The notes: generated by a model from the letters alone, not told the origin. 64,000 nt of DNA from Naegleria gruberi (GCA_000004985.1 GG738846.1); one strand, 5' to 3'. Numbered from the stretch's first letter, positions 6,496 through 53,430 are shown. Numbers and translations: made by a program.

Positions 6496-7439
6496 TGAGA
6501 AAGTTTCTGAAAAGATTCAGATTGGATGAAAAATTGAATGAAATTGTATTGGATGAGGATTTATTTCAATCAATTTGTGCATATATTGAAACTTTGTATA
6601 GTTTTGAAAAATGGAAAGAGTTGGAAGATGATTTCGAGCTGTTGGAGAGAGTGAAACAATTGGTGGGCGAAGATTTGATTCAAGAAACCATGAATCAATA
6701 CCAGTATGATCAGGATTGTGCCTCAATATTTGAAAGTGTTCAGAAACTCAATTCTATTACTAGCAAAAGACAGAGTTTTTTTACAAGACCTCCTGTAAAT
6801 GAGTCATTTGCTAAGAATTCGTGGGATCTTACCGTAATTGTACAAGATCCAACGAATGGAGAGGAGAAAACATTTTTTCTGCACAAGTTATTTATGAAAA
6901 GATGTCCATATTTCTCTACAGTACTCAGTTCTGGAATGATTGAAAGCCAAACCAATGAGTTGACTTTTAATTCGATATCTATTGCGGCTTTTGAGAAGGT
7001 GTTGGAATATTGCTATACTAATGCATTTATTCCAACTCTGGAAACTTGCATTGAAATTTATGTATTTTCTGGCTTTATTGAACTCTCTGCATTGAGAGAA
7101 TTGGCCTTCAAATATGTCAAAACAAAGATTGGAATTAGAGGAAATGAGCAATTGGCAACTGAATTATTAATGATACCAGATTTTAGAGATGATCCAAATG
7201 TGAAATTGGCATGCTTAAATGCAATTAAAAAAAATGTGAAAAAAATGGTCTTCCCTGAGAATGCATTATTGGTTTCCCTCAATTTACTTCCAACAGATTT
7301 CAAAGATCAAATTTTAATGCATAGATTGGGCTCTCTTTTAGCCGATCAATACGATCTTATTAAGGATAAATATCATGATATTCCTTTACAAGTTAGAGAG
7401 ACTATTCAACAACAAATGAAACTCAAGTTAAGAAAATAA
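6496..7439 (+). CDS. BTB/POZ domain protein
   Basis: BTB-like segment FFLHKLFMKRCPYFSTVLSSG...FEKVLEYCYTN...LSALRELAFKYV. The ORF-track start at 6384 is TTG; first in-frame ATG is at about 6496, and an upstream exon cannot be excluded. Confidence 0.45.
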
Positions 7440-9703: not shown

Positions 9704-10223
9704 TTTTTTGTAATCAATAAAAATAATTATTTAATATAACAATAAATTAAATATTGAATATTATTAAACAATCAAACTACAAATATGGTGGATAAAAAAC
9801 CTTAAATATGAATTGTTTCCTCTCTACTGTAAAAAACAGTAAAAAAGCCTGAGTAAGTAATCGTTGAAAAGACCACATAATATGAAGTGTCCTCAAGCCA
9901 CCTTATGCATTACACATCTTACATTGTTCAACAATGTTATTTATACAAAGTATCACTTTACATTGTTGCATTACCATTCCTCGAACCTCTTCTTTTTTGT
10001 TCATAGGAGTCATGAAGTGGTGACCCATTCATGGATTCATTACCTTATACCTCCTTTTTCAAGTGTGATCGTATTGAGGTGAGCATTACTGTTGATTCAA
10101 AGTCGAATGGATTGGTTCGTTCGTTCCAATGGTTTGGAGAGTTTGAGCGCTTTGCCAAGGCCTGGATGGAATATTTTCAAACTCAACACACTTTAGGAGA
10201 CGGTCTCCAAACACACTTAAAAA

Positions 10224-21079: not shown

Positions 21080-21689
21080 TATTAGTTTAGAATAATTTTA
21101 GCAACTATCATCAGAGAACTATTCATCAATCCCAATTTCTCCCTCCACATTTGTTGTGTAGTGTCTGAGAGAATGAATTGAAATAGATTTTACTGAGATA
21201 GTTTAATTGCACCAGTCAATCATGATATAGCTGGATTTAAGGATCATGAAACCAATCTAAACAAAACCACTTGTAAATAACAAATAAATAACTCTTTAGA
21301 AAACCTTTGAGAACCTTCTCCACTGATTTCCATCAAAATTTAATTGACAGAGTATCGAGCTCAGCTGGTCATCAACTTATTTCCTATCATGAATTCATCA
21401 GCCACACCAATACAGCTCACCTTCCAAGAAATGATCTAGCTCTCCTCATCCACACTCTTAAGAGCAAGCAAATAAATTTGCAACGCACGTTTAAATGTTC
21501 TTCTAATCTTCACAAGTTAAAAATAAAATAGTAATCGAAATCGAAACAAATCGTGATGGGAAGTCACGAATTTGCACAAATCTATTTTCACATGTGAAAA
21601 CATTTTCAAGCTATTTAAACTCTCAGTATTCTCAACTCTCTATCTTCCAACACAAAAAAAACAATACAACCCTAACACACTCTAACAAA

Positions 21690-22658
21690 ATGCAAACAAC
21701 TCAACTCACTTTCGATCAAAGTAAATCCTCAATTCTCGTCTCTTTAGATAAGAAGAAATCTGATCAACATTGTAAACTTCTTTTGGAACAACTTGTTGGA
21801 AAGTTTCAATTCAGAAATAACAAATATACCTTCAGTGGATCATATGATCTTGCACAGTGGTTGGTTCTCTCTTTTGATTCAATGGTTAAGGAAGATGAAA
21901 AGTTTTTCACAGAGATTGTCATTCCAATAGTTGCATACATTTCAATTGTGGATGATGCTTGTGATGAGAAGATTACTGACATGTCTATTGCAGAGATGAA
22001 AGAACATTGTAAGATATTTAGAGGAGAAACAGTTCATGCTTCTCACTCTGCTCTCAAGATGGGACAATTTGTGTACAATCTAATCAGGGAAGAAAGATTC
22101 GAATGTATTAGAAGAAAGGTTTTGGAATTCCTGGTGACTGGAACTAATCTAATTGAAAAGGCAAAAAATAATAATGGACCAATCACTGAAGAAATATTGG
22201 CTAACTTTTTAGAGGAAAGAAGAATTGACTCCATGGCCTCTCTTTTCTTTACTATCAACAATATCTTTAACAAGATTCCATTAGAAATTGAAAGATGCGA
22301 TAATGTGCTCATTCAATATAATCACATGGCATGTGATACGATAAGTTTATTGAATGATGTTGCCTCCATTGCAAAAGATACCCAAAAGAAACTTGTCAAC
22401 AATTATGTAATATTGAATAAGGGAATGAAAGAGAACTTATCGTACAGTGAATTGAAACAACTCCCAATTGAAGCATTTGAATCTTCCGTGAATGAAGTTT
22501 TAGAATTAATCAATGCTAATTTGTTTCAAATGCAAACTATCAAATCCTCCAATCCATCCTTCTCCACACAATTCGGTTCAATCGATGAGGTCATGAAGGG
22601 ATACTGTAATTACAATCTGCAATTACAATATCAATTTTTTCTTTTGATAATATCTTAA
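21690..22658 (+). CDS. Class I terpene synthase (microbial-type TPS)
   Basis: Asp-rich motif IVDDACDE (DDxxD/E) and downstream NSE/DTE-like motif NDVASIAKD. Size about 320 aa, typical of microbial-type TPS. First ATG at 21690. The C-terminal 20 aa may be intron read-through (GTAATT at about 22606). Confidence 0.55.
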   Translation: MQTTQLTFDQSKSSILVSLDKKKSDQHCKLLLEQLVGKFQFRNNKYTFSGSYDLAQWLVLSFDSMVKEDEKFFTEIVIPIVAYISIVDDACDEKITDMSIAEMKEHCKIFRGETVHASHSALKMGQFVYNLIREERFECIRRKVLEFLVTGTNLIEKAKNNNGPITEEILANFLEERRIDSMASLFFTINNIFNKIPLEIERCDNVLIQYNHMACDTISLLNDVASIAKDTQKKLVNNYVILNKGMKENLSYSELKQLPIEAFESSVNEVLELINANLFQMQTIKSSNPSFSTQFGSIDEVMKGYCNYNLQLQYQFFLLIIS

Positions 22659-26582: not shown

Positions 26583-27445
26583 TTATTGATCTTTTAGATC
26601 AGTGACAATTCCAATAAATTTGTACTTTTCGTGATCATCATAAAACTTGACCCAATCTTCAATACTTTGCATTTGTTCTTGTGTGAAATCCGAATATTTA
26701 GATTGAACACTTGTGCATTCCTCCTTTTCTTCATCAAAGCAACTTTTTAAAAATGTATCCATAAATCTATTGAAATATTACATACCCTGTTACAAATGAT
26801 CTTGTACCATCTCTACCAGCAAAGAAGTGATAACCTCCTTCCATTCCATAATAACTTTTACCTTCACTAAGTTTCGGATATTGATAAAATAATTATTGAA
26901 ATAATCATTATTTAGAGAATTGATGAGATAGACAATTAATAAGAGAGCTCACAAATATATACAAACCTAACATCATAAACTCTTCCTTTAATTGCCAACA
27001 AGAGTGGCAAACTTTCATCCTTTCCATTATAATGTTTCAACTCTTCTTGTGTAAATTTGAAATAATCCTTAGCATGACTTCCTCCACTACTCTTGTATGG
27101 TAACTTGTATGTAGTAAAATCAACTTTAAATTCACTAGGAACAGATAGCACTGAAGAAGAAGCCTCTTTCTTCCCGTGGAATGTAGCCAAATACCACTTG
27201 ACAAATTTTTGTTTAAATTCCTGATTATTCTTATATTGATAGATAAAGTACAATGTCCAGAATATGGCACTATAAATTAGAAAGTACATAATTAAACGTG
27301 GAATTGAAGTTTGTTTCCTTGATGATTCAAATTCTTTAGAGTTTGATCTTCCTTCATGTTGTTGTTGTTCATGATCCGATGCTGCTGATGTATTATCATC
27401 ATGAACTTTTGGAACATCAGAATTGATCGTCTTGTTATTGATCAT
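26583..27445 (-). CDS. Membrane-associated progesterone receptor component / cytochrome b5-like steroid-binding protein (MAPR/Dap1 family); 3 exons 27445..26967, 26866..26786, 26742..26583
   Basis: Spliced product reads FTQEELKHYNGKDESLPLLLAIKGRVYDVSEGKSYYGMEGGYHFFAGRDGTRSFVTGCFDEE...QMQSIEDWVKFYDDHEKYKFIG, matching MAPR family order. Introns 26867..26966 (GTTTGT) and 26743..26785 (GTATGT, 43 nt). N-terminal transmembrane segment present. Confidence 0.7.
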
Positions 27446-27513
27446 TTTTTTTTAATAAATTATTAAATATTTAAATAATATTATTTAATGGATAATAATT
27501 ATTGTAAAAAAAA
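27446..27513. promoter_or_regulatory. 68-bp AT-rich divergent intergenic region shared by MAPR (minus) and KDSR (plus) start codons; putative bidirectional promoter
   Basis: ATG of the minus gene is at 27445 and ATG of the plus gene at 27514. Sequence is almost pure A/T. Confidence 0.3.
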
Positions 27514-28730
27514 ATGAGTTTATTGTGGACGTTCATGTTGCAACCCATGTTGGTGATTGGTAGTGCTCTATCAGTGGTTCACTTACTTCACTACTTGTTT
27601 ATTCAAAGAAAAAAGATGAAACATTCAATGGAAGGAAAAACTGTTTTAATTACTGGAGGATCGACTGGTATTGGATTAGGTAGGTGTTTGTAATGGTGTT
27701 GAATCATTCCGATCATGATGATTATTTTGAATATTATATTTAATAATAATATTATTATAATATTGTATTTATAACATTAATTGTATTTATTGTATTTAAT
27801 AATGATGATGAAATTTTAAAATAATATATAGGTATTGGTATTGAATGTTTAAAACAAAAGGCTAAAACATTGATTATTGTTGCAAGAAATCAAGAAAAAT
27901 TGGAACAAGCAAAGAAGGAATTACAAGAATATTGTAAAGGAAAGCAAGAAGTTATTATTCATTCATGTGATGTTGGTGATGAGGATCAAGTTGACAAGAT
28001 GATTGAACATTTATATTCAAGTGCTATTGAAAATGTTGATTATTTATTTATTAACCAAGGATTGTCAATTCCAGGATATATTCTCTCACAAAAGATGGAG
28101 GATTTCAAATATCAAATGAATTTGAATTATTTCAGTCATGTCATGCTTTCAAAGAAATTTATTCCTAAAATGATGGATTTGGAAGCTGCTAGTGGTGGAG
28201 CATTTGATAGACATGTCATTTTCGTTGGATCAGCATGTTCAATTGCATCATTTGTTGGATATGGATCTTATTCACCAACCAAGTATGCTATTAAGGGTTA
28301 TGCTGAAGCTCTTCGTAATGAATTATTGGGAACTAATATTAGAGTTCACTTGGCTTTACCTGTTGATACAGATACTGAAGGATTCAAGAAGGAAAATGAA
28401 ACAAAACCAAAGGAATGTGCAATCTTGTCAAGTCTCTCTGGATTACAAACCTATATTGAATCAGGTTCAATGCTTGTAAAGAATTTATTGAAATCTTCCA
28501 TTCAATTCTATGTCATTTCCTCATTCGACACCTACCTTCAAATTGTTGGAGCTACTCTTGGTGTAGGACCATGTGTAAATAGATTCAACTATCCAATGAT
28601 TGATATGTTCACATCAAGTTTATTCATTCCTTCTGTCATTTTGAGAAGTATTGCCTATTATTTCGATCATGTAAGTGAAAAGGCTGCACACACTCATAGA
28701 AATGAAATTTTCAAACAATTACAAAAATAA
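27514..28730 (+). CDS. 3-ketodihydrosphingosine reductase (KDSR/Tsc10-like short-chain dehydrogenase); 2 exons 27514..27679 and 27832..28730
   Basis: N-terminal transmembrane segment. TGGSTGIGLGIGIEC cofactor motif is reconstituted across the intron (27680..27831, GTAGGT...TATAG). ARNQEKLEQAKKEL, the YSPTK catalytic Y-x-x-x-K and LPVDTDTEGFKKENETKP closely parallel KDSR. Confidence 0.75.
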
Positions 28731-28884
28731 CAACTCCCATTATTTATCAATAGTTTATATAATATCTATACGAAACCATACTGAACATTTTACAAAGTGT
28801 TGCTGTATCAATATTGAGATACCTATTGGTGTTGCTGATTACAATTTTCCATTACAATCAAGGTTCACCAAAGTAACAAAAAAA

Positions 28885-29817
28885 ATGTCACAACACGAAC
28901 ACTACAACCACACACTAATTTTCAATGAAAATAATCATCATTCAATGTGGCCAAATCAATTTGATCCGACACTGAAAAGTAAATTCATTGAAAAGATGCA
29001 AAAACCAAAAATTACGAATTTTTCATACAAGTTTGAAATTTTGCAAAAGTTTGGTCCCATTCTAACCCAACAATTTGAAATGTGCTATTCAAAGAATTTA
29101 ATGATAGCAAGGACCATGCTTTCGAATGCATCTCTTCTCTTTTTCGATATGAATACAAAGGAATTGCTTCAATCAGTGCCATTGAAATTAAATCCAGAAT
29201 TAGATAAGTTTATTTTGGAGGAAAGAAGAGACGGCTCTTGTTATATCTATGCAATATTGAGAGATTATTCAGTGGCTTGCTATGATTTGGATGAAATTAT
29301 GAAATTGCAGAAGTTTGGAAATCCAAAATGGAGGGTCGAATCGATGGGAACTGAAATTGATATTTCCATTAAGCATTCAATTCTATTTGTGATTCATCCA
29401 TTCAGAGAGGAAGTAACACTGTTGCGAGTAGAGGATGGAAGTGTTCTTGCTAGACATCCTTGTTTGTGGGGAAAGAATGAGTCAAAAGTTTTCAAATTCT
29501 GTGATGATGAGAATTCAACACTGTTTCACACTCTGGGGAATGAAGGAGTTATTGAAGGATTGAAATTTAATAAGGATTTCTCTCAAATAATTGAGAAATT
29601 CAAGATACCATATCATGATTGGTTGGTCAGTTGTATTGTTTTTGAGGAACAGACAGGAAATATGATTGCTTTGGGAAATCAATTAACTATATTTGATAAT
29701 AAGCTTAATATTTTACATGAGTTTTCAAATGTAGGAGGAAATCACATGAGATTTGATAGAAAACAGGGACATGTATTAATATGTGGAAGTCCCTCACATA
29801 TTATTGTCTACAAATGA
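28885..29817 (+). CDS. Hypothetical protein (about 310 aa), no recognisable domain
   Basis: First in-frame ATG at 28885 (track start at 28675 is non-ATG). Clean ORF to TGA/TAA at 29817. Confidence 0.4.
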   Translation: MSQHEHYNHTLIFNENNHHSMWPNQFDPTLKSKFIEKMQKPKITNFSYKFEILQKFGPILTQQFEMCYSKNLMIARTMLSNASLLFFDMNTKELLQSVPLKLNPELDKFILEERRDGSCYIYAILRDYSVACYDLDEIMKLQKFGNPKWRVESMGTEIDISIKHSILFVIHPFREEVTLLRVEDGSVLARHPCLWGKNESKVFKFCDDENSTLFHTLGNEGVIEGLKFNKDFSQIIEKFKIPYHDWLVSCIVFEEQTGNMIALGNQLTIFDNKLNILHEFSNVGGNHMRFDRKQGHVLICGSPSHIIVYK

Positions 29818-48141: not shown

Positions 48142-48765
48142 ATGAGTTTACGACCAGAATTCACCAGACAAGACAGCCTCTCATCTTCCGTAAGCTATGA
48201 AGATGTTGATGACGAGCCTTCCCCATTTTCATCTTCCGAAGTTGATCAACAACAATTTGTGCTTGATAATAATTCATTGTTAGAGGCTAGATTTTCTATT
48301 GAACATGTAAAAACTGTCCTATCGCAACTCTACAAACAATTAACATGTTTTAATATTTTCATCATGATTTTAGTGTACATAGTAATCGTATCTGCAAGTT
48401 CCATATTTTTCTTTTTTGTTGCGTCCACAGATGTGAATTATGATGATAATGTTTACAATAGTATGAACACATTCGAATATCTGCACTATTCATTTACAGC
48501 CTCAAGAAGAATTCTGCACTGGAAGAGACTATTGATCGTGATTGCATTCCAATTATTTGTATTTATTAGTCATTTATCATTCTTCCTCACCTTCTTCCAA
48601 TATTGCAAAAACAAATACGTGCAAGGACCTCTAATCAGAATGGAACATTTGAAAACAATTTACAAGCAAAAATTGTTCATTGCTGTTTCCTTAATAACTC
48701 TCACGAGTATGATTAGTCTCTTCTTACTATCTCCTAATATTGTTAATTGGCTGTTTGGACTCTAA
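48142..48765 (+). CDS. Small multi-pass membrane protein, unknown function
   Basis: ATG at 48142. Three to four hydrophobic segments. Confidence 0.35.
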   Translation: MSLRPEFTRQDSLSSSVSYEDVDDEPSPFSSSEVDQQQFVLDNNSLLEARFSIEHVKTVLSQLYKQLTCFNIFIMILVYIVIVSASSIFFFFVASTDVNYDDNVYNSMNTFEYLHYSFTASRRILHWKRLLIVIAFQLFVFISHLSFFLTFFQYCKNKYVQGPLIRMEHLKTIYKQKLFIAVSLITLTSMISLFLLSPNIVNWLFGL

Positions 48766-50123
48766 TTTTCAGTTCCTTGCAATGGTTGTGAATAAAACTT
48801 ATTATCCAAATCAGTTTCATGTTTTTTCAAGTTGATAAATTGATCATTCTCAATTACATTCTTGTAATAGTGATTGACAAAGGTGAGGAGATTGTTAAGA
48901 ATTTCTAAAAACTTGTCATTGGACATGTAAATCAAGTGTAATAATTTAGGTGAGGCAATCTTTTCAAATATAAATATACAAAATAGTAAAATATTGAGAT
49001 AAATACTCGTGATGGTCCAAAATAACTGATTCACAAATGATTTTGGTATTTGCATGAGATTTTTCATTCTCAAATAAACTGAAAGAATCATGTAGAAATT
49101 CTTTGGATTATTATTTCTAATCTTGGCTAGTAATCTGGCAACAGTGAGCTTTGCATTGGTTCCAATTCTGAAATACTTCCTAAAATTTAACATTAAATCC
49201 GAAAGATGATTCTCCAATTTGGACAATTCAATTACAATAATCGGTTTGATAAAAAAATTGAATCGATCATGTACATAGGTTACAGTTAATAGAGTTAAAA
49301 TTGCTAATGATTTGATAATGTTCAATAAAATTTCCACAAACAGAATAATCATACTAGAAGTAATTGGTCTATCAATAGTTGTATAATATTCTGGTTTGAT
49401 TTTTTCATTTTCAGAACTCTTCTCATTAAAATCAATCCCATCACTATTACTGCTCGCATTAAATAATTTAAATAGCATCTTATCAATACTATATACTGTA
49501 TTATTAGTATTACTACTAGCATTATTATTTACATTAAAATTCTGTTTTGATGATGGATCATCCTCTTCCTCAATTGGTAGATCAAATCCAACACTTGATG
49601 ATTTCTTCTCCTTTTCCTTTTTTGAATTTTCTTTATCTAATAACTTCATATTGTGATGATCATCTTCATCAACCATTTCCAAAACATTGTAAACACTCTT
49701 TATAAAATTGGTCAATTTGTTCACTGATTGAAATGGATGTAATAATATCTGTGAATCATATTCATTATAATATTTAGCCTTTATCCTTTCATTACTATTA
49801 ATATTGTGAGAAAATAAATTATGAAGAATTGGAGCATTGGTTGAAATTTTGAACAAGTGATGATCTAATAAATCAATCTTATTTTCCTTTAACTTGTTGA
49901 GAATTTTCGTTCGTAATTCCTGATTTTTAATGGGTTTCAAGTGTGAGAGGAGTTGAACAAGTCTTCTCCTTTTCGAATAATCGGATGGTGGTGTTGTTGA
50001 TGATGGTATTTTGTATGTTGATGATGGTGTCGATGATGAATCCGAGTGTTGTGAATGTTCATTATTATGATGTTGTTTATCAAATGAGTGAGGATGAATT
50101 GTTAAGAGATCAAATAGGAACAT
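48762..50123 (-). CDS. Hypothetical protein (453 aa), His/Ser-rich N-terminus and hydrophobic C-terminal half
   Basis: ATG at 50123..50121. Its stop codon overlaps the stop of the converging 48142..48765 gene. Confidence 0.4.
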   Translation of the reverse strand: MFLFDLLTIHPHSFDKQHHNNEHSQHSDSSSTPSSTYKIPSSTTPPSDYSKRRRLVQLLSHLKPIKNQELRTKILNKLKENKIDLLDHHLFKISTNAPILHNLFSHNINSNERIKAKYYNEYDSQILLHPFQSVNKLTNFIKSVYNVLEMVDEDDHHNMKLLDKENSKKEKEKKSSSVGFDLPIEEEDDPSSKQNFNVNNNASSNTNNTVYSIDKMLFKLFNASSNSDGIDFNEKSSENEKIKPEYYTTIDRPITSSMIILFVEILLNIIKSLAILTLLTVTYVHDRFNFFIKPIIVIELSKLENHLSDLMLNFRKYFRIGTNAKLTVARLLAKIRNNNPKNFYMILSVYLRMKNLMQIPKSFVNQLFWTITSIYLNILLFCIFIFEKIASPKLLHLIYMSNDKFLEILNNLLTFVNHYYKNVIENDQFINLKKHETDLDNKFYSQPLQGTEN

Positions 50124-50198
50124 TTTTTAATTATTAAATGATAAATTTAATATTTAAATAATAATTCAAATAATTATTATTTTAATTAATAATTAACT

Positions 50199-51116
50199 TT
50201 ATAAAACACTTTCTTTACATAAAAATTCCTCTTGTTGATCTCTCACACGTTGTTCTTCTCTCTTTCTCTCTTTACACTTTTTACACCAATCTTTCAATTC
50301 TTGAATGAGATTCTTCTTATCTTTGAATCTTCCTCTACGATTCACCAAATCAGTTCCACACTTGTAATGAAGAATAACATGGCTATTATGAATGGGTTTC
50401 TTAATTACAATACCCTTATTGTTACTATTACTCAAGCTTGAATCTATTGTTTTACTGACATTATTCATTGATAATGATGGTGCAGTATTATTGATACTGC
50501 CCTGTTGTTGTTCATTGTTGGTGGTGGTAGCATTCTTCTTTTCAAAATTAGACAAATACCATCCCCTAGTCATGGAATAGAGAGAGGCTGATTTGTTATT
50601 GTTATTTGGATAGCCTGGTAAGAGCTCTTCGAGATCTAATTTACGACCAAATACATTGAATTGTACATTATTATAGTTAGTGGAGGATGAGGTAGCATTG
50701 TTTGTTGTGGAATTGTAGAGAATTGGAGAAACTGGAGGATGATCATAATTCATTATGGATGAGAGTGATGAGGATTTGTGCAATTGTTGTTGTTGCTGGC
50801 CTACATTATTTGGTCCACTATTATTCAAGCCTAGTGTGGAAACATTTGGTGTTGTTGTGGTACTACTAGTTGAGTGATGATGCATTGGATAGGGTGAATA
50901 GTGATGATGAAGTGGTTGTTGTTGTTGAGGATTCGAATTCATCACAATTGCACTACCCAGTGCAGGAAATGAAGAAGGTGGTGGAGGTGGAGGAGCCAAA
51001 GCTGATGATGATGATGATGGTGCAAACATTGTCTGTTCCATCATCATTGTATTGGGTGCTATTATCGAAGAAGATGAAGAATGAGGGATAGCGGTTGAAG
51101 ATGGTGGTTGCATCAT
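50199..51116 (-). CDS. Pro/Gln/Ser-rich protein with basic Cys-containing C-terminal region (possible nucleic-acid binding)
   Basis: ATG ATG at 51116..51111. C-terminus HYKCGTDLVNRRGRFKDKKNLIQELKDWCKKCKERKREEQR. Confidence 0.35.
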   Translation of the reverse strand: MMQPPSSTAIPHSSSSSIIAPNTMMMEQTMFAPSSSSSALAPPPPPPSSFPALGSAIVMNSNPQQQQPLHHHYSPYPMHHHSTSSTTTTPNVSTLGLNNSGPNNVGQQQQQLHKSSSLSSIMNYDHPPVSPILYNSTTNNATSSSTNYNNVQFNVFGRKLDLEELLPGYPNNNNKSASLYSMTRGWYLSNFEKKNATTTNNEQQQGSINNTAPSLSMNNVSKTIDSSLSNSNNKGIVIKKPIHNSHVILHYKCGTDLVNRRGRFKDKKNLIQELKDWCKKCKERKREEQRVRDQQEEFLCKESVL

Positions 51117-51325: not shown

Positions 51326-52615
51326 ATGTCAATACTCGAAGAACAAAACACACTCCCATTCTCTGAACAAGAATCACCAGAAAATTATCTTTATTTTCTT
51401 ACCACAGTTAATCCAACAGATTTTATTAATACGTCGGAGAGAGGAAGTAAAATTGTAAAATTATTTTCGGAACACTTTTTACCTTTGCCCTTCTCATCGA
51501 ATGAGGATGGATCTGACTTGACAGAGGAAACAACAGTAATTTTACTTGTTCCATACTTTATTGCATTGGGAACTTTGCAAATTAGACAGGAAAATACTCA
51601 GCCATTCAATATGGAATTGCATCAAAAAAATAGAAAGATTCAATTGAAACAAGCAAATGAATATTTTTGTAAATTTTTAAATTTGGCTTTACAATATGAT
51701 CAGGTTAATGATGATTACCTCTCTTGGGTATTGCCTCATACAATGAATAGGGATGATGATGAGGAGGAACAAGTTGCAAAATCTACCAAGAAACAGGATA
51801 AGGCATTCGAACAATTGATGAATGACAGAAGTCAAATGGTATTGCGAATGAAGACAAAGAATGCCTTAGCACAGGAGTTATTTTCAAACGTTGAGGAAAT
51901 GTCTGAATTGGAAATTTCTAGATTATTGTCGAGTGTTTCTCTTGGAGAGGATTCAAGCAAGAAGGTTTCAGAACAAGTGAAAAAGAAAATGTTGAACATT
52001 AGAGATTATATTAACTTTTGCGTTCTAGACACTTTGGAGAATTTAGCTTCCAACAGTAGAGAAGAAGGAATGCTCAATGCAGTTTCTGCTCGTCCTTCCA
52101 TGCCTCAACATCCTTCCCAATCGTATCAACAACAAAGTGGTTCAACATCAGGACAACCAATTTCCCATCTTAAGGCTACATCTATTAATGATGTTCTTAA
52201 TAACCGTGGGGTTCTCTCACAAATGGGCTATAATATGATCTTACTTCCAAATAATAATGGTGGCAATACTGGAAACAAGTCAACCAGTAGTGGCAATTCA
52301 TTACAAAAGAAGGCACTCGCCAATCAGTCCATTCAATCCAATATTATCAATAATAGAACAACAAGAGAGGATATCAAAAGTAGAGTGTTTGGATCCTATG
52401 TTCCTGGACCAACAGTATCTCTGGAAGAGTTTGCCCGACAGGAATGTATCGACATGCACCAAAGAGAAGAAAAAGACAAGCAATTCAAACAAGAACAGAC
52501 TCAAAAGAAGAAGGATGACGAAGAGGAAGAAGATGAAGAGGAATTGAAAAAGAAGAGAGTGTGGGAAGATTGGAAAGATGATCATGTTAAAGGTTCTGGT
52601 AATATGAGAGATTAA
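51326..52615 (+). CDS. TAP42/alpha4 (IGBP1)-like PP2A-family phosphatase regulatory protein
   Basis: C-terminal signature VFGSYVPGPTVSLEEFARQE...EEEEDEEELKKKRVWEDWKDDHVKGSGNMRD matches the TAP42-family C-terminus (R-E-W-D-D-W-K-D-x-H-P-R-G-x-G-N). ATG at 51326. Confidence 0.7.
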   Translation: MSILEEQNTLPFSEQESPENYLYFLTTVNPTDFINTSERGSKIVKLFSEHFLPLPFSSNEDGSDLTEETTVILLVPYFIALGTLQIRQENTQPFNMELHQKNRKIQLKQANEYFCKFLNLALQYDQVNDDYLSWVLPHTMNRDDDEEEQVAKSTKKQDKAFEQLMNDRSQMVLRMKTKNALAQELFSNVEEMSELEISRLLSSVSLGEDSSKKVSEQVKKKMLNIRDYINFCVLDTLENLASNSREEGMLNAVSARPSMPQHPSQSYQQQSGSTSGQPISHLKATSINDVLNNRGVLSQMGYNMILLPNNNGGNTGNKSTSSGNSLQKKALANQSIQSNIINNRTTREDIKSRVFGSYVPGPTVSLEEFARQECIDMHQREEKDKQFKQEQTQKKKDDEEEEDEEELKKKRVWEDWKDDHVKGSGNMRD

Positions 52616-53430
52616 AATACATCATAATAATTTTCACTCTTGACCACAATCAATGAAGGTTTGAGACATGTTCTCACAAATTCTACAACTTGTTTCACAG
52701 CTTCCACCATTCTATTTCCATTAATATCAATAAACACTTTCAATTCACATGATGGGTTACCATATTTATATCGTCTCCAAACTTTGGAAATGCTTTTTTG
52801 TTCCATTTCATCCAAACAATTGGACCACCAAAATTCAATCTCTGGATATTTCTTTTTAGTTTCCTCAATATAATCCTTTGAAATATCCAAACACAATAAT
52901 TTTGCACAATTTTCAAATAATATTTTAGAGGTATCACCACGAGCAGAACCAATCTCAATCACAAAGTCTCCCGATTGCATTATTGGATCAACACCTCCTT
53001 TCTGTTGCTGTACAAAATCATACGATTTGAAAACTTGTGTTTTTGCAAGCATTCGGAAATCTCTTGTATCTCTACAAACAATCACCTTTTCTTGATGCAA
53101 TAAACTCATGATGGGAATCATCTTGCTTGGAGAGACATGATAACAAGACTGATCTTTACAATATTGAATTTTATATTTTCCAACAAATTCACTCCTCTCA
53201 CTTTCTACCACCTTGTTTACAACTCTGGCAATGGAGTATACTTTTTTCCCTTGAATTATCCATACTAGATTATATTTTGAAAATAGATATTCCTCATTGG
53301 AAGTAATTAATTGGTGATCAAAATTATTATATTCCACTTTTCCGAGATTATATAAAATTAATCCATCTTTTACTCCTTTCATTCCATCGTCATTGTTATT
53401 TTGATGAGTAATGGAAGTTTGTTCCACCAT
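52612..53430 (-). CDS. Class I SAM-dependent methyltransferase-like protein
   Basis: Motif I-like VIEIGSARGDTS followed by LLCLDIS. ATG at 53430..53428. Its stop overlaps the TAP42 stop in a shared TTAA. Confidence 0.4.
   Translation of the reverse strand: MVEQTSITHQNNNDDGMKGVKDGLILYNLGKVEYNNFDHQLITSNEEYLFSKYNLVWIIQGKKVYSIARVVNKVVESERSEFVGKYKIQYCKDQSCYHVSPSKMIPIMSLLHQEKVIVCRDTRDFRMLAKTQVFKSYDFVQQQKGGVDPIMQSGDFVIEIGSARGDTSKILFENCAKLLCLDISKDYIEETKKKYPEIEFWWSNCLDEMEQKSISKVWRRYKYGNPSCELKVFIDINGNRMVEAVKQVVEFVRTCLKPSLIVVKSENYYDVF

Follow-up and report, generated by a model that had tools for sequence, protein, structure and literature searches.

A head-to-head gene pair encoding a MAPR-family protein and a predicted 3-ketodihydrosphingosine reductase across a 68-bp A/T-rich spacer in Naegleria gruberi

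We analysed 64,000 nucleotides of compact, AT-rich nuclear DNA from Naegleria gruberi (GCA_000004985.1, GG738846.1; hereafter the window) and concentrated on two divergent genes at positions 26,583 to 28,730: a MAPR-family gene, encoding a cytochrome-b5-like protein, on the minus strand, and a gene for a predicted 3-ketodihydrosphingosine reductase (KDSR) on the plus strand. An earlier note on this DNA had proposed that the start codons of the two genes lie 68 bp apart in A/T-only sequence, that this spacer is a shared divergent promoter, and that the genes are possibly co-regulated membrane-lipid genes. The distance was found to be exact. The spacer is not purely A/T, being composed of 33 A, 32 T and 3 G (G+C 4.4%, or 96% A/T). 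It opens with a T8 run and closes with an A8 run, such that an A-run directly precedes the ATG of each gene. The features of the locus are listed in Table 1.

Table 1. Features of the MAPR-KDSR locus, in window coordinates
Feature	Position	Strand	Details
MAPR-family (cytochrome-b5-like heme/steroid-binding) gene	26583..27445	minus	239 amino acids, 3 exons; NAEGRDRAFT_29788 / XP_002682864 (P0121)
MAPR exons	27445-26967, 26866-26786, 26742-26583	minus	splice model and translation
MAPR intron 1	26867..26966	minus	100 nt, GTTTGT...CTTAG
MAPR intron 2	26743..26785	minus	43 nt, GTATGT...AAAAG; the sole 43-nt intron
68-bp spacer between start codons	27446..27513		presumed shared bidirectional core-promoter and 5' untranslated region
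3-Ketodihydrosphingosine (3-dehydrosphinganine) reductase (KDSR) gene, predicted	27514..28730	plus	354 amino acids; KDSR part of NAEGRDRAFT_61878 / XP_002682662 (P0001)
KDSR exons	27514-27679, 27832-28730	plus	splice model
KDSR intron	27680..27831	plus	152 nt, GTAGGT...TATAG

The MAPR start codon is read from CAT at 27443-27445 on the minus strand and the KDSR start codon from ATG at 27514-27516 on the plus strand. Splicing of the window sequence gave GT-AG borders for all three introns of the pair, and the two spliced products aligned without a gap at any junction with homologues from N. lovaniensis, N. fowleri and more distant organisms, from which we conclude that both gene models are sound. 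The three introns proposed for the pair were thereby confirmed, although not the statement that two of them measure exactly 43 nt, since this holds for only one. The reconstructed proteins match database entries titled 'predicted protein [Naegleria gruberi]', with 96% identity for KDSR (to P0001) and 100% identity over 78% of the protein length for MAPR (to P0121). The first MAPR intron has a counterpart at the same position in N. lovaniensis, visible as a gap in the tblastn match. A 14-nt micro-exon flanked by two 43-nt introns (43+14+43) was considered in place of this 100-nt intron and rejected, as it would break the frame and no orthologue carries an insertion there.

The 152-nt KDSR intron is missing from the N. 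fowleri and N. lovaniensis orthologues, each of which is an uninterrupted 1089-bp coding sequence, and the tblastx match with N. lovaniensis picks up again exactly at 27830/27832. Judged from these sequences, the difference would be an intron gain or loss inside the genus Naegleria. Searches with Rfam gave nothing meaningful in the spacer or the introns, and no tRNA was found in the 64-kb window.

The length of the spacer depends on which start codons are used. Both ATGs chosen here are the first possible starts of their respective open reading frames (ORFs), while the public N. gruberi models begin at internal methionines, M53 of MAPR and M35 of KDSR, implying a spacer of 326 bp. The public MAPR model, XP_002682864, has 187 amino acids and starts within the membrane helix, the upstream region corresponding to 27289-27445. 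MAPR orthologues of 239-246 amino acids favour the upstream ATG at 27445. N. lovaniensis, N. fowleri and Willaertia preserve the length, and part of the sequence, of the segments upstream of M53 and M35, and tblastx matches to the N. lovaniensis locus reach upstream of both internal methionines. In addition, a start at M35 would delete the only N-terminal membrane helix of KDSR (residues 3-31). We prefer the upstream ATGs because they are the first starts of their frames, because orthologues conserve the residues that follow them and because of the two membrane helices. Given the conserved residues and the helices, we regard it as highly improbable that the public starts are correct, with a real spacer of about 326 bp holding two separate conventional promoters and the 68 bp being an artefact of ORF extension. 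This alternative is supported by the NCBI/JGI models themselves (P0121 and P0001), one of which, P0001, is demonstrably wrong at its 3' end.

This public KDSR model (XP_002682662 / NAEGRDRAFT_61878; 574 amino acids, window 27616-29817) is a chimera, in which KDSR from M35 onwards is joined to an unrelated downstream gene (window 28885-29817) through a predicted intron from about 28672 to about 28995. The KDSR orthologues of N. lovaniensis, N. fowleri and Willaertia end as the unspliced KDSR reading does. The practical yield of the reconstruction is therefore the correction of two public N. gruberi models, of which the MAPR model was truncated and the KDSR model ran on into the neighbouring gene.

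The minus-strand product has one membrane helix (residues 50-69) and, at residues 132-192, a match to the Pfam family PF00173 (Cyt-b5; 42 bits against a cut-off of 23.7, E=9e-11). By phmmer, its closest solved relatives are Arabidopsis MAPR (1t0g/1j03) and human PGRMC1 (4x8y), with E-values of 1e-16 to 5e-19, whereas plain cytochrome b5 scored only 6e-5. An AlphaFold (AF2) model, in which the predicted local distance difference test score (pLDDT) of the domain was 81-92, was compared with the PDB using Foldseek; the TM-score was 0.80-0.83 with PGRMC1 and with Arabidopsis MAPR but 0.55-0.60 with classical (rat) cytochrome b5. Pfam, phmmer and Foldseek thus agree with the earlier proposal of a MAPR-type cytochrome-b5-like gene on this strand, and its product is, as judged from sequence and model, a MAPR-family protein with an N-terminal membrane anchor.

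Within the domain, Y166 and Y172 are invariant across 8 homologues and in 'EKYKF' the K-Y pair falls opposite the 'KY' of Arabidopsis MAPR in the alignment, while the sole nearby histidine (H173) is not conserved. We take the conserved Tyr/Tyr/Lys-Tyr positions to be equivalents of the PGRMC1 heme contacts Y107, Y113, K163 and Y164, which in MAPR proteins replace the pair of axial histidines found in cytochrome b5. The protein thus resembles PGRMC1, yeast Dap1 and Arabidopsis MSBP in its cytochrome-b5-like fold with the MAPR-type extra helical region, in these heme-contact positions and in its N-terminal membrane helix. It differs from them in being only about 35% identical and in having a 50-residue hydrophilic N-terminal extension and a linker of about 60 residues before the domain. 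In addition, where PGRMC1 has 'LATFCLDKE' after the heme pocket, the Naegleria protein has 'FVTGCFDEEKEEC', a stretch presumably closer to neuferricin/CYB5D2. No annotated members of the PGRMC/Dap1, neuferricin or neudesin subfamilies are present among the 13 MAPR matches. Of the proposal that this is a Dap1-like protein regulating the cytochrome P450s (P450s) of sterol synthesis, the family assignment stands, and the protein may be either PGRMC/Dap1-like or neuferricin-like; heme binding and P450 activation by the Naegleria protein may be suggested only by analogy at the level of the family.

The plus-strand product is a classical short-chain dehydrogenase/reductase (SDR; Pfam adh_short, 125 bits, E=2e-36) whose closest solved match is the fungal KDSR TSC10 (8jat), with 80.9 bits compared to 62.5 for the next SDR. 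Where KDSR homologues carry a name, in oomycetes, algae, fungi and insects, it is in every case 3-dehydrosphinganine reductase. The cofactor motif TGxxxGxG is present as T47-G-G-S-T-G-I-G54, and in an alignment of 9 sequences the TGGSxGxG pattern and the catalytic residues S189, Y202 and K206 are invariant, as is a KDSR-specific block past the active site, P232..T237.G239...E243-N244.T246-K247-P248 (P-x-DTDT-x-GF..EN-TKP). A hydrophobic helix is found at the N-terminus and may anchor the protein to the endoplasmic reticulum (ER) membrane, while the C-terminal segments are only moderately hydrophobic. The SDR motifs, the Ser-Tyr-Lys residues, the KDSR-specific block and a predicted N-terminal membrane anchor are shared with human KDSR/FVT1 and fungal TSC10; the Naegleria KDSR is 30-39% identical to its non-heterolobosean homologues, and the N. 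gruberi gene, unlike its Naegleria orthologues, carries an intron. Since Pfam, the TSC10 match, homologue names and motifs all agree, the assignment of a KDSR-type SDR to this strand was upheld, and its predicted activity is that of the ER enzyme 3-ketodihydrosphingosine reductase (EC 1.1.1.102). KDSR is an NADPH-dependent SDR that requires no heme or P450.

We then considered how unusual the spacer is. Among the head-to-head ORF spacers of the window, about nine in number, it is the smallest; the rest measure 185-1392 bp, with 185 and 209 bp as the next in size. It is also one of only two sites in the 64 kb at which a 68-mer has at most 3 G/C. The other such site is a 75-bp spacer (50124-50198, 4% G+C) between two tandem minus-strand genes, M (48762-50123) and N (50199-51116; genes of the window are referred to by letter). 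ORFs fill nearly the whole window, and gaps of 8-150 bp between tandem and convergent neighbours are common. In annotated loci of relatives, genes lie head-to-head across 59 and 69 bp (N. lovaniensis locus) and 19 bp (Acrasis), so the 68-bp spacer is at the short end of the normal range and is not an outlier. The compactness of the genome is also apparent where gene ends meet: convergent ORF ends overlap by 4 bp at 48762-48765 and 52612-52615, and other convergent gaps of 8-12 bp occur at 7439/7448 and 35279/35292.

The divergent arrangement was found again in two other Naegleria species. In N. fowleri, FDP41_007711 and FDP41_007710 lie head-to-head with a 99-bp spacer of 27% G+C, and in N. 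lovaniensis C9374_007143 and C9374_007144 do so with a 155-bp spacer of 32% G+C, so that a likely KDSR and a MAPR protein are now identified for all three sequenced Naegleria species. A second N. lovaniensis haplotig has a spacer of 173 bp through an 18-bp insertion relative to the first (9846-10000 of locus L001). This difference between haplotigs indicates that the spacer tolerates insertions and deletions. Length, sequence and G+C are not conserved among the spacers (68, 99, 155 and 173 bp; 4%, 27% and 32% G+C), and alignment of those of the three species revealed no conserved promoter motif beyond the T-run at the MAPR ATG and the ATG contexts. When the 21-kb N. lovaniensis locus was compared with the whole window by tblastx, the MAPR-KDSR segment was the only match, which shows that both flanks were rearranged while the pair stayed joined. 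The rearranged flanks are in line with the low synteny between N. gruberi and N. fowleri reported in published work.

To judge what this retention means, a baseline was obtained by locating the N. lovaniensis orthologues of two other window genes and comparing their neighbourhoods with the window; together with the two outer junctions of the pair itself this covered 8 junctions. Of these, N|M survives intact and M|L survives with one gene inserted; breaks were found at the remaining six (D|MAPR, KDSR|E, K|L, N|O, O|P and P|next). N|O, which is not kept, is itself a head-to-head pair with a 209-bp spacer. Because some two to three of the eight other junctions survive, one more surviving junction is not statistically remarkable. 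M|N, which survives in N. lovaniensis (L010), is the junction with the one other very short, extremely A/T-rich spacer of the window, an observation that fits with short spacers being hard to break. The pair also provides a worked example of two-gene blocks with very short spacers outlasting the scrambling of gene order between N. gruberi and N. fowleri/lovaniensis. As a separate observation, the N. lovaniensis orthologue (C9374_006823) of a methyltransferase-like gene at window 52612-53430 (minus) is on the same 1.08-Mb scaffold as MAPR and KDSR at a distance of about 640 kb, a hint that the content of chromosomes may have been kept while gene order was scrambled.

Outside these species the pairing was not recovered. 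In Willaertia magna, a MAPR gene was found neither in the 5.5 kb upstream of KDSR nor in the 10 kb downstream of it. The KDSR gene of Acrasis kona is head-to-head with a different gene, encoding an MMR_HSR1/RsgA-type GTPase (L004, 8919-11123), with 19 bp between the annotated gene ends. Two MAPR-bearing contigs, L005 and L011, have different upstream neighbours and no pairing with KDSR. The most informative case is a Naegleria-like metagenome contig (L008, 1-3349; ENA ERZ27315067 k141_8478), which retains flanks of the N. fowleri type in the order RNA ligase ... MAPR ... BORCS6, its MAPR being 56-60% identical to both the N. gruberi and the N. lovaniensis proteins. It bears no trace of KDSR, whose slot holds about 2.1 kb of unrelated ORFs: a coiled-coil ORF, an ORF with a PRiA4_ORF3 domain and one that reads, from its translation, as eIF1A-like. 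The expectation that the arrangement is conserved thus holds in N. fowleri as well as in N. lovaniensis but not beyond them, the pair being broken even in this Naegleria-like contig.

Taken as a whole, the data suggest that MAPR-KDSR is probably an ordinary head-to-head pair of a compact genome, in which both genes share a short bidirectional promoter region rich in A/T, and that it has stayed together in the genus mainly because it is hard to split. According to this model, the 68-bp poly(dA:dT)-rich spacer would be a single, nucleosome-poor promoter region serving both genes. Both transcripts would begin within it and have very short 5' untranslated regions (UTRs), and MAPR and KDSR would tend to switch on together as a by-product of promoter sharing. 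The linkage would persist mainly since so short a spacer gives almost no breakpoint that spares both promoters. The linkage can be explained without invoking selection for a coupling between sphingolipid synthesis and MAPR function. Bidirectional promoters of compact eukaryotes and co-regulated adjacent pairs (Arnone et al. 2012, PMC3500266) resemble this case in having divergent genes less than 1 kb apart, an A/T-rich spacer and an adjacency retained in related species. They differ in that the retention observed here falls inside the range shown by other small gene blocks of these genomes, and in that MAPR and KDSR do not belong to one known regulon.

Several points weigh against this interpretation. 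The head-to-head N|O pair was lost, yet MAPR-KDSR was kept with both flanks rearranged, and a selective component may be involved. The adjacency baseline consists of eight junctions only, and the shared promoter is inferred. Finally, both products are predicted lipid-related proteins of the ER membrane, which is how a selected module would look.

We therefore considered the possibility that the pair is a selected, co-regulated membrane-lipid module, in which MAPR would act on ER lipid enzymes that depend on heme or cytochrome b5, as their heme chaperone or activator, while sharing a promoter with KDSR. Its candidate targets would be CYP51 (sterol), fatty-acid 2-hydroxylase (FA2H) and sphingolipid desaturases/hydroxylases, and sterol and sphingolipid output would rise jointly. 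N. gruberi, N. fowleri and N. lovaniensis have indeed all kept the pair despite changed flanks, both proteins have predicted membrane anchors, and the presumed heme-contact residues of MAPR are conserved. Naegleria relies on CYP51-driven (ergosterol) sterol synthesis (PMC6136796), and PGRMC1 has been reported to bind FA2H, an enzyme of sphingolipid metabolism, and Dap1 to activate P450s (PMC10002949). Both products were detected in N. gruberi proteomes under copper limitation (PMC9035749), the KDSR entry being the chimeric model, whose peptides possibly derive from either part. Given two lipid-related proteins with predicted membrane anchors, the dependence on CYP51 and the reports on PGRMC1-FA2H and Dap1-P450, a functional link between MAPR and KDSR is conceivable.

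Nevertheless, we consider such a module unlikely. KDSR itself needs neither of the factors that MAPR would supply or activate. Neither Willaertia nor Acrasis showed the pairing, nor did three other contigs with a MAPR gene, and L008 keeps the outer flanks with KDSR gone. No MAPR-SDR fusion protein was found among the 120 KDSR and 13 MAPR homologues listed, the spacer is devoid of a conserved motif, and the background retention of adjacency is that given above. Conservation of the pair within the genus is thus weak evidence for coupling, and the description of the two as co-regulated membrane-lipid genes was not established, in view of this background, the broken pair in L008, the absence of the pair from Willaertia magna and Acrasis kona, and the lack of spacer conservation. 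A more specific version, in which a bidirectional two-gene unit arose in the Naegleria lineage and has been maintained there by selection, coupling a heme-chaperone-type MAPR to the committed reductive step of sphingoid-base synthesis, seems to us quite unlikely. If true, sterol/heme-dependent modification of lipids would be locked to sphingolipid synthesis at the level of transcription, and a protist would supply an example of a metabolic gene pair under selection.

Lastly, we think it very unlikely that the genes are overlapping divergent transcription units, each with its start site within the first exon of the other, the spacer serving as 5' UTR for both and mutual interference being possible: 68 bp is scant room for two core promoters and two 5' UTRs, and gene ends overlap elsewhere in the window, but the A-runs before both ATGs and the extreme A/T content resemble intergenic rather than transcribed sequence.

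As an ordinary head-to-head pair, MAPR-KDSR is a new instance of a well-known arrangement, and its practical value is modest on present evidence, residing chiefly in the two corrected gene models. If coupling were real, the locus would offer a small, testable case of promoter sharing across sterol/heme-dependent and sphingolipid chemistry in a deep-branching eukaryote. The sterol and sphingolipid pathways are both of interest as drug targets in the pathogen N. fowleri. Elsewhere in the window, about 5 kb upstream of the pair, the plus-strand ORF 21594-22658 matched Pfam Terpene_syn_C_2 above the family cut-off (E=5e-8) and may represent a terpene synthase-like gene.

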